A stretch of 12,085 bases of DNA, taken from IMG/VR virus record IMGVR_UViG_2713896780_000027. One strand, written 5' to 3'. Made by a program: the position numbers and the translations under genes. Of the stretch, positions 10,304-10,543 are shown piece after piece; the stretch's first letter is position 1; the number at the start of each line of letters is the position of its first letter. The DNA comes from a virus. Taxonomy: Duplodnaviria > Heunggongvirae > Uroviricota > Caudoviricetes. Below the pieces are notes generated by a model that was given only the letters and a program-made list of their open reading frames with translations, ran no database searches and was not told the origin of the DNA.

Positions 10304-10379
10304 GGCCCTTTAGCTCAGTGGTGAGAGCGAGCGACTCATAATCGCCAGGTCGCTGGTTCAAATCCAGCAAGGGCCACCA
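10304..10379 (+). tRNA. tRNA-Ile2 (anticodon CAU, lysidine type; a Met-type tRNA cannot be excluded), CCA encoded
   Basis: Manual fold: acceptor GGCCCTT/AAGGGCC, D arm GCTC...GAGC, anticodon loop CTCATAA, T arm GCTGG-TTCAAAT-CCAGC, discriminator A, then CCA. Close to E. coli ileX as I recall it. Corresponds to ileZ of lambdoid and Stx phages. Confidence 0.8.
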
Positions 10380-10380
10380 A

Positions 10381-10456
10381 CCGCCACTAGCCATCAGGAA
10401 AGAGCGTCAACCCTTTAAGTTGAGTGTGCGAGGTTCGAGTCCCCGGTGGTGGTCCA
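10381..10456 (+). tRNA. tRNA-like gene with atypical D arm; identity uncertain (argN-like position)
   Basis: Acceptor CCGCCAC/GTGGTGG (one G-U), perfect 5-bp anticodon stem TCAAC/GTTGA, T loop TTCGAGT, discriminator T plus encoded CCA. The D stem pairs at only 2 of 4 positions, the T stem has an A-C mismatch, and the 7-nt loop CCTTTAA gives C33 with anticodon UUU. Confidence 0.45.
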
Positions 10457-10469
10457 TTATCGGTATTCT

Positions 10470-10543
10470 GCGTTGTTAGCTCAGCAGGACAGAGCAATTG
10501 CCTTCTAAGCAATCGGTCACTGGTTCGACTCCAGTACAACGCG
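10470..10543 (+). tRNA. tRNA-Arg (anticodon UCU, reads AGA)
   Basis: Manual fold: acceptor GCGTTGT/ACAACGC, D arm GCTC...GAGC, anticodon stem ATTGC/GCAAT with loop CTTCTAA, T arm ACTGG-TTCGACT-CCAGT. No CCA encoded. Corresponds to argO of lambdoid phages. Confidence 0.85.

Follow-up and report, generated by a model that had tools for sequence, protein, structure and literature searches.

A probable argN derivative with a lysine anticodon and a broken D arm between two rare-codon tRNA genes of a PPompW-type lambdoid prophage

The tRNA trio downstream of Q

The stretch of DNA analysed here (the window, 12,085 nucleotides of the caudoviral IMG/VR record IMGVR_UViG_2713896780_000027) carries a cluster of transfer RNA (tRNA) genes downstream of the phage gene Q, and the subject of this study is the aberrant gene in the middle of that cluster. 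A preliminary description, made from the sequence alone, had reported three tRNA-like genes after Q. ARAGORN run on the window returned three genes, at 10304-10379, 10381-10456 and 10470-10544, with the anticodons CAT, TTT (at gene position 34) and TCT. The cluster consists of the following genes:

10304-10379, plus strand: ileZ-type tRNA-Ile2 with anticodon CAU, canonical, CCA encoded (ARAGORN; Rfam 72.5 bits)
10381-10456, plus strand: aberrant middle gene, a probable argN derivative of the allele class termed class B below (direct reading, ARAGORN, alignments, folding)
10470-10546, plus strand: argO-type tRNA-Arg with anticodon UCU, canonical body (ARAGORN, 10470-10544; Rfam 68.1 bits)

The outer two genes had been described as canonical tRNA-Ile2(CAU) and tRNA-Arg(UCU), and both ARAGORN and the Rfam tRNA model RF00005, whose gathering score is 29 bits, agree with this assignment. 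The first gene is known as ileZ, or as tRNA-Ile in RefSeq, and the third as argO. In alignments, ileZ does not vary and argO hardly varies across the Stx2 (Shiga toxin 2) phages compared, and ileZ is unchanged in 119 of 124 related clusters. The 3' end of argO reads G73-CUA instead of CCA (CTA at 10544-10546 of the window; GCGCTA versus GCGCCA), an ending common to 10 of the 124 related clusters; as CCA is not encoded, maturation of this tRNA would need trimming and the CCA-adding enzyme. An Rfam match of the model Plastid-ycf2 to the reverse complement of ileZ (10304-10377, minus strand; 36 bits against a gathering score of 65.7) was discarded as an artefact, since the model evidently resembles antisense tRNA and other tRNAs, in L174, match it as well.

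The middle gene is separated by a single base from ileZ and by 13 bases from argO. Its acceptor stem comprises seven pairs (CCGCCAC with GUGGUGG), one of which is a G:U pair, G3:U70 (10383:10450), and is followed by the discriminator U73 and an encoded CCA at 10454-10456; the anticodon stem UCAAC/GUUGA is perfect over five pairs, and the T loop UUCGAGU is canonical. Thus, the paired acceptor stem, the perfect anticodon stem and the encoded CCA that had been pointed out previously can be read directly in the sequence, and the defects reported along with them were likewise recovered. The poor pairing of the D stem goes back to a missing base, U12, which according to the alignments is absent between 10391 and 10392; only G10:C25 and C11:G24 remain contiguous, short of the three to four pairs of a D stem, and G18-G19 are present. 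The T-stem mismatch is A51:C63 (10431:10443), which is common to the argN gene of phage F349 and to all class B copies. The anticodon loop, CCUUUAA, has seven bases with C33 at 10413, UUU at 10414-10416 and A37, so that stem, loop length and a purine at position 37 fit an elongator tRNA and the base at position 33, which should be U, does not. Shifts in the register of the anticodon loop by which U33 would be regained were considered, and none of them pairs. In the following, class B denotes the allele class defined by this loop (CCUUUAA, with C33 and UUU) together with three base pairs in which both partners differ from those of most argN alleles.

The gene is treated differently by different tools and databases. 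The preliminary description had allowed for a standard scanner to find a canonical cloverleaf with a conventional anticodon; ARAGORN calls a tRNA-Lys(UUU), which is nominally a conventional anticodon, but it does so on the same defective fold. RF00005 gave no match to the middle gene at the gathering score, and the only Rfam match obtained for it in a permissive E-value mode was to tRNA-Sec (15.7 bits, E = 2.7). At loci identical to the window by 100%, RefSeq annotates a tRNA-Ile and a tRNA-Arg and nothing on the middle gene, and matching public records label the three genes tRNA-Met, tRNA-Lys and tRNA-Arg. As the same 351 bases of the window occur at 100% identity in records of the PPompW prophage and in many complete Escherichia coli genomes, the U12 deletion is not a sequencing artefact. 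Minimum free energy (MFE) folding is uninformative by itself, as ileZ and argN also give no cloverleaf as their MFE structure, and the energies of the cloverleaf folds were therefore compared directly. The best cloverleaf of the window copy reaches -15.4 kcal/mol, to which the D stem contributes about 0, and competes with a non-cloverleaf fold of -23.3 kcal/mol. For intact class B the corresponding values are -22.3 and -25.0 kcal/mol, and the cloverleaf of argN from Stx2a_1447 has -30.7 kcal/mol.

Descent from argN and the class B alleles

In Stx2 phages, the slot between ileZ and argO is filled by argN, which ARAGORN reads as tRNA-Arg(UCG). The middle gene of the window aligns with argN over its full length. 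The closest argN is that of F349 (Stx2a_F349) with 84% identity, corresponding to 12 substitutions in 77 positions plus the U12 deletion, so that the gene does not match this known argN exactly, a case for which the preliminary description had allowed as well. Eight of the 12 substitutions (G30A, U33C, C35U, G36U, C40U, G43A, U44G and C47U) fall within positions 27-48, that is, the anticodon arm and the variable loop (Fisher p = 0.003). From most argN alleles to class B, the pairs 7:66 (U:A to C:G), 27:43 (C:G to U:A, for which U:G intermediates exist) and 30:40 (G:C to A:U) are changed on both sides, and an alignment of 50 alleles keeps the cloverleaf in 95.6% of its cells. Among the elements recognised by arginyl-tRNA synthetase (ArgRS), C35 is the main determinant and A20 an identity element; the middle gene retains A20 and has lost C35 (U35, U36), its anticodon being UUU and not UCG. 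Judging from these alignments, the middle gene is evidently a descendant of argN, and the class B lineage appears to have undergone an anticodon shift from Arg (UCG) to Lys (UUU). A search of IMG/VR with the pattern GTCAACCNNNNAAGTTGA for a tRNA that could have donated the anticodon arm of class B found none among the matches listed, which comprise argN-context copies and unrelated chance matches only. Mischarging with alanine through G3:U70 was considered and set aside, as this pair is inherited from F349-type argN and its context of C2:G71 and U73 would be unfavourable.

Class B is a widespread allele class. A pattern search with the class B stem and a free loop matched 120 loci in IMG/VR, all 120 of which have the loop CCTTTAA; intermediate loops, such as U33 with UUU, were absent from these loci. 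Among the 119 loci that could be classified, 107 show the four-gene cluster ileZ - class B - tRNA-Thr(UGU) - tRNA-Gly(UCC), and 12 have the order ileZ - class B - argO of the window. In the common class B allele, the D stem is intact (GCUC/GAGC) and the pairs G3:C70 and C7:G66 are present; the Rfam tRNA model gives this allele 44.4 bits, and RefSeq labels it as a 77-base tRNA-Lys in a DUF968-RusA-Q context. About 749 of 5,426 complete E. coli genomes contain the class B 5' half, which amounts to carriage in lambdoid prophages of roughly one in seven genomes, and 601 of the 5,426 contain the four-gene cluster at a query coverage of at least 80%. Among the complete genomes with class B, 221 have exactly the U12-deleted 5' half, about 189 have a C4U/U8C/C11U haplotype, which is without RefSeq annotation, and the rest are intact; the IMG/VR sample comprises about 66 intact, 25 U8C-haplotype and 14 U12-deleted copies. 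In a scan of one genome per species, the argN family as a whole was confined to Escherichia and Shigella, except for two metagenome bins labelled otherwise.

The spacers of the four-gene module measure 1-3 bases (2-3 before Thr; L174, 4756-5065), and the module is also present in L143, L139, L166, L193 and L245 (E. coli) and in L248 (Shigella flexneri). In 5,421 of the 5,426 complete E. coli genomes, part of the four-gene query finds a match, which suggests that its Thr and Gly genes may be near-copies of the chromosomal genes thrU and glyT.

The copy in the window departs from the common class B allele in that it has lost U12 and carries U70 instead of C70. From the T arm onward (GGTGGTGG, the spacer TTATCGGTATTCT and argO), the window is identical to the F349-type cluster, and the window copy is thus a recombinant of the two cluster types. 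The U12 deletion is also found in the Thr context (L177). It lowers the Rfam score from 44 to less than 16 bits, is accompanied by the loss of the RefSeq annotation, and leaves the gene with a D stem that brings no gain in stability. We therefore consider it probable, at about 0.6, that the middle gene is an argN-derived tRNA gene shifted from Arg to Lys, of which the copy in the window is a non-functional or severely impaired remnant lying between intact rare-codon tRNA genes in a defective prophage. Two of the explanations that the preliminary description had offered, a pseudo-tRNA and a tRNA of altered specificity, would thus both apply, the latter to the argN-derived UUU lineage and the former to the D-stem deletion; its third suggestion, a regulatory RNA, found no support.

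Several observations weigh against the view that the gene is a mere remnant. The acceptor stem, the anticodon stem, G18-G19, the T loop and the CCA are intact, and ARAGORN still gives the gene a cloverleaf with the anticodon UUU. Since both partners are changed in three of its stem pairs, class B seems to have arisen under selection for tRNA shape, and its parent was thus probably functional in some way; in a simulation, about 10% of random sets of three stem substitutions left all five pairs in place, so that this argument from compensatory changes is modest, and supportive rather than decisive. Furthermore, the allele without U12 occurs in identical form in 221 complete genomes, which belong to several serotypes; this could reflect retention as well as recent spread. 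Finally, transcription and processing of the middle gene are putative, and its loss of function is predicted from structure and scores.

Turnover of the middle slot and the prophage context

Scanning with the ileZ 3' end and the argO 5' end as anchors recovered 125 clusters, including the window and the reference loci, in which the middle slot is occupied as follows:

Class A, 86 of 125 clusters: argN with anticodon UCG
Class B, 5 of 125 clusters: loop CCUUUAA, anticodon UUU
Class C, 3 of 125 clusters: anticodon arm deleted
Class D, 31 of 125 clusters: 80-base scrambled middle with a variable poly-G run

Even class A is uneven, with Rfam scores from 58 bits down to below the threshold, and its common alleles contain the mismatches A52:C62 and A6:A67 or a broken acceptor stem. 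Neither ARAGORN nor Rfam makes a tRNA call on classes C and D, which still have the two strands of the acceptor stem, the 3' half of the T arm and the CCA; in class D, 29 of 31 loci have an acceptor stem that is complementary throughout. Thus, the middle slot decays repeatedly, and ileZ stays nearly invariant. Within the four-gene module, diversity is 0.0045 for ileZ, 0.010 for the Thr gene and 0.022 for class B, values that do not decide the question of constraint, as the flanks are mosaic (pi about 0.27) and are not a neutral comparator.

Some of the individual alleles deserve mention. Class D (L012, about 2719-2818, and about 30 other IMG/VR loci) makes up about a quarter of the ileZ-X-argO clusters and combines the argN acceptor strands and CCA with an unrelated interior (…AGACGACACGATAACAGGGTTGTTGG…), the poly-G run varying from 5 to 12 G. 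The middle genes of class C (L013, L053 and L061) are 66 bases long, have C7 and the D loop in common with class B, continue as GTCA-CCCT-GTGCGAGA, and look like deletion derivatives of class B. In L026, the middle gene is an argN allele with the loop CUUCUAA and the anticodon UCU, duplicating the specificity of argO, and L046 has an argN allele with A37G (loop CUUCGGA); both add to the cases of a changed anticodon loop in this slot.

The tRNA trio is located downstream of Q in a lambdoid prophage of the PPompW type. The PPompW record LC567818 matches positions 4456-12085 of the window at 99.4-100% identity and has the gene order DUF968/ydfU, rusA, Q, tRNA cluster, ISEc20, terminase; the host prophage has been described as defective (PMC8112680). 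Around the tRNA genes, the following features were identified:

9419-10108, plus strand: Q, late antiterminator gene ('phage late gene regulator Q' by the annotation of the near-identical PPompW record, coordinates mapped)
10169-10198, no strand assigned: G+C-rich hairpin between A and T runs in the interval between Q and the tRNA genes (terminator scan)
10266-10294, plus strand: sigma-70 promoter-like site TTGCAA-17-TATTAT (consensus scan, 9 of 12 matches; a consensus match only)
10560-10585, plus strand: intrinsic terminator-like hairpin and T run after argO (seven pairs, six of them G-C, then TTTTTTGTAT; a scan match only)
10627-12085, minus strand: insertion of ISEc20, IS110 family (mobile_element annotation in LC567818, mapped onto the window)

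The open reading frame of Q in the window spans 9413-10108, and RefSeq names a Q gene of the same length 'bacteriophage antitermination protein Q'. The hairpin at 10169-10198 has 13 pairs; the scan reports it on the minus strand, its plus-strand letters are AAAACCCGCCCACAAGCGGGTTTTGTTG, and it is a candidate for a tR'-type terminator between Q and the tRNA genes. The promoter-like site ends 9 bases 5' of ileZ. Under the mechanism that we consider most likely, transcription from this site and Q-dependent read-through would cover the three tRNA genes jointly and end at the terminator of 10560-10585, and RNase P and 3' exonucleases would release tRNA-Ile2 and tRNA-Arg(UCU). The former would read AUA after lysidine formation and the latter AGA and AGG; the middle product would fold poorly and make little or no contribution to decoding. 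On this view, the middle gene would persist because it lies one base from ileZ and 13 from argO in a module that recombines as a unit, within a prophage that is itself defective.

The insertion sequence (IS) ISEc20, with its transposase reading frame at 10658-11854 on the minus strand, stands in place of the lysis cassette that normally lies 3' of the tRNA genes. It was inserted about 40 bases past the tRNA terminator, and its end is the end of the window. In related prophages, the position after the tRNA genes is taken by TerB/DUF3927/esterase genes, by holin and lysozyme genes, or by stx. The gammaproteobacterial small RNA STnc100 of Rfam matches downstream of the tRNA cluster or of the stx genes in related phages with 108-175 bits (L002 4691-4902, L003 4697-4912, L004 4074-4260, L013 2841-3049 and others), and the Rfam scan did not find it in the window, where the IS-associated deletion begins. 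Further upstream, at about 5936-7650 of the window as mapped from LC567818, a Paa/AdfO adhesin-like gene, a toxin gene of the hok/gef type and rem are annotated.

Possible functions and relation to known systems

Codon binding by tRNA-Lys(UUU) depends strongly on the modified bases t6A37 (N6-threonylcarbamoyladenosine) and mnm5s2U34 (5-methylaminomethyl-2-thiouridine), and lysyl-tRNA synthetase (LysRS) prefers A73. The middle gene has the fitting anticodon UUU, together with U73 in place of A73 and C33 in place of the U33 required for t6A37. Elongator tRNAs have a conserved U33, and as exceptions eukaryotic initiators and a tRNA-Ser of Candida are known (PMC5041475); once U33 is changed to C, t6A37 is not made by the E. 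coli TsaBCDE enzymes, C33 acting as an anti-determinant (PMC8887486). With C33 and U73, efficient decoding is doubtful even for intact class B, which would be a poor decoder although its tRNA shape was evidently conserved during its origin.

Nevertheless, the gene or its intact class B parent might be a working tRNA-Lys-like backup decoder, or a decoy, directed against the anticodon nucleases PrrC, RloC and AriB of the PARIS system. We regard this as unlikely, and as slightly less probable still the narrower version in which class B was selected as a tRNA-Lys mimic, built on an argN scaffold with UUU, C33 and altered positions 39-41, and serving as backup or decoy against these enzymes; the U12-deleted copy in the window would then represent either a later loss or a decoy that is still active and does not need to decode. 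Such a role is favoured by the exact UUU anticodon and the loop that is invariant in 120 of 120 loci, the target being the single E. coli tRNA-Lys(UUU), and by the change of three stem pairs on both sides with the tRNA shape preserved. In addition, C33 of class B is situated at the 33/34 junction, the site of PrrC cleavage. Class B reads U36AAGUU41 and differs from E. coli tRNA-Lys at positions 39, 40 and 41, and AriB cuts E. coli tRNA-Lys at U36AAUC/A41 (the slash marking the cut), with cleavage abolished by U39A and inhibited by A41C (PMC12409363). Phage tRNAs with changes in the anticodon loop have been proposed to evade anticodon nucleases (PMC10264068). However, more than half of the class B copies in complete genomes are further damaged, by the U12 deletion or by U8C, and are not annotated in RefSeq, and the window copy has no stable D stem. 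The discriminator, moreover, is U73 and not the A73 that LysRS prefers. With C33, the conserved nucleotide of the U-turn is lost and t6A37 formation should be prevented in E. coli (PMC5041475, PMC8887486), a point against efficient decoding, and the neighbouring tRNA-Thr(UGU) of the four-gene cluster keeps the AriB-sensitive sequence UAAUCA. For this last reason, the idea that the four-gene cluster was built as a whole to evade PARIS was rejected.

An equally improbable explanation is that the middle gene is a tRNA-shaped processing spacer, whose acceptor and T arms would supply an RNase P site one base past the CCA of ileZ; this would set the 3' end of ileZ and divide the precursor, and decoding would be irrelevant. 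The very short spacers, one base after ileZ and 2-3 before Thr in the four-gene cluster, would agree with such a role, as would the survival of the acceptor strands, the T arm's 3' half and the CCA even in classes C and D, and in E. coli RNase P reportedly (work of Mohanty and Kushner) separates polycistronic tRNA transcripts. On the other hand, the conserved gene ends could reflect recent origin or break-points of module recombination, and many clusters of Stx phages have spacers of 8-10 bases, so that closely abutting genes are not the rule. A regulatory small RNA derived from a tRNA is less probable still: nothing specific speaks for it apart from an MFE fold that is a long irregular hairpin without a cloverleaf, and this fold is no more stable than that of shuffled sequence (z = -1.36), no Rfam family matches the region beyond the chance-level tRNA-Sec, and the variation pattern follows the cloverleaf helices. 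The possibility that the preliminary description had simply misfolded an ordinary functional argN, a tRNA-Arg, may be dismissed almost entirely; the gene does occupy the argN slot and keeps A20, yet the anticodon is UUU rather than UCG with C35 lost, 12 differences and the missing U12 separate it from the closest argN, and it fails the Rfam threshold, whereas argN alleles reach 43-58 bits. This reading is refuted by the sequence.

Being probably an impaired remnant of an Arg-to-Lys shifted argN, the middle gene should be left out of the working tRNAs when phage tRNA content or codon supply is discussed. There is also a point of annotation, as ARAGORN-based GenBank records give 'tRNA-Lys' and RefSeq omits the gene, and neither records the derivation from argN or the broken D arm. 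The middle slot of the ileZ-X-argO/Thr clusters turns over quickly between canonical argN, flawed argN, class B and deleted or scrambled remnants, and its alleles form a natural series for the identity change and death of phage tRNA genes. If, in contrast, class B were to function as a tRNA-Lys mimic with C33, bacteria would have in it a rare exception to the U33 rule, and temperate phages a candidate counter-measure against defence systems that target tRNA-Lys. The middle gene stands in public records as tRNA-Lys already, and the ileZ-argN-argO module is well known. In the open-access literature, a search on ileZ/argN/argO and on lambdoid tRNA-Lys/Thr/Gly clusters returned nothing specific, which is weak evidence. 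Within the same limited coverage, we found no description of the 'tRNA-Lys' as an argN derivative with C33, of coexisting intact, U8C and U12-deleted alleles, or of rapid turnover of the middle slot beside an invariant ileZ.

Among comparable systems, one is the prophage 'tRNA-Lys' of the ileZ-Lys-Thr-Gly cluster (RefSeq E. coli; phages such as PhiR47_1), which belongs to the same allele class over the 5' two-thirds and shares with the window copy the C33-UUU loop, C7, the D loop and A51:C63. It has a four-pair D stem, G3:C70, a score of 44 bits, an annotation and Thr-Gly as its neighbours, whereas the window copy is without U12, has G3:U70 and is followed by argO. The ileZ-argN-argO cluster of Stx and other lambdoid phages (Stx2a_F349, phage 2851, 933W-type) is likewise located downstream of Q, and F349 argN and the middle gene have the 3' end, the spacer and G3:U70 in common. 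They differ in the anticodon loop, which is CUUCGAA in argN of the Stx phages and CCUUUAA in the window, in the pairs 7:66, 27:43 and 30:40, and in the missing U12; in the window, moreover, the cluster is followed by an IS and not by stx. [quoted passage not shown] However, the T5 tRNA is canonical and has been shown experimentally to rescue infection (PMC12409363), whereas the middle gene is known from sequence alone. It further differs from the T5 tRNA-Lys by C33, the T-stem mismatch and, in the window copy, the lack of a D stem, and its function as a tRNA-Lys is doubtful. The last comparison is with the alloacceptor anticodon shift, or tRNA gene recruitment, in which a tRNA gene is reported (Saks and co-workers, 1998) to change its amino-acid family by anticodon mutation. 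ArgRS and LysRS both read the anticodon, and the middle gene represents the body of an Arg tRNA bearing a Lys anticodon. It departs from such a shift in that two anticodon bases and, with U33C, a further base of the loop are changed and U73 is kept.

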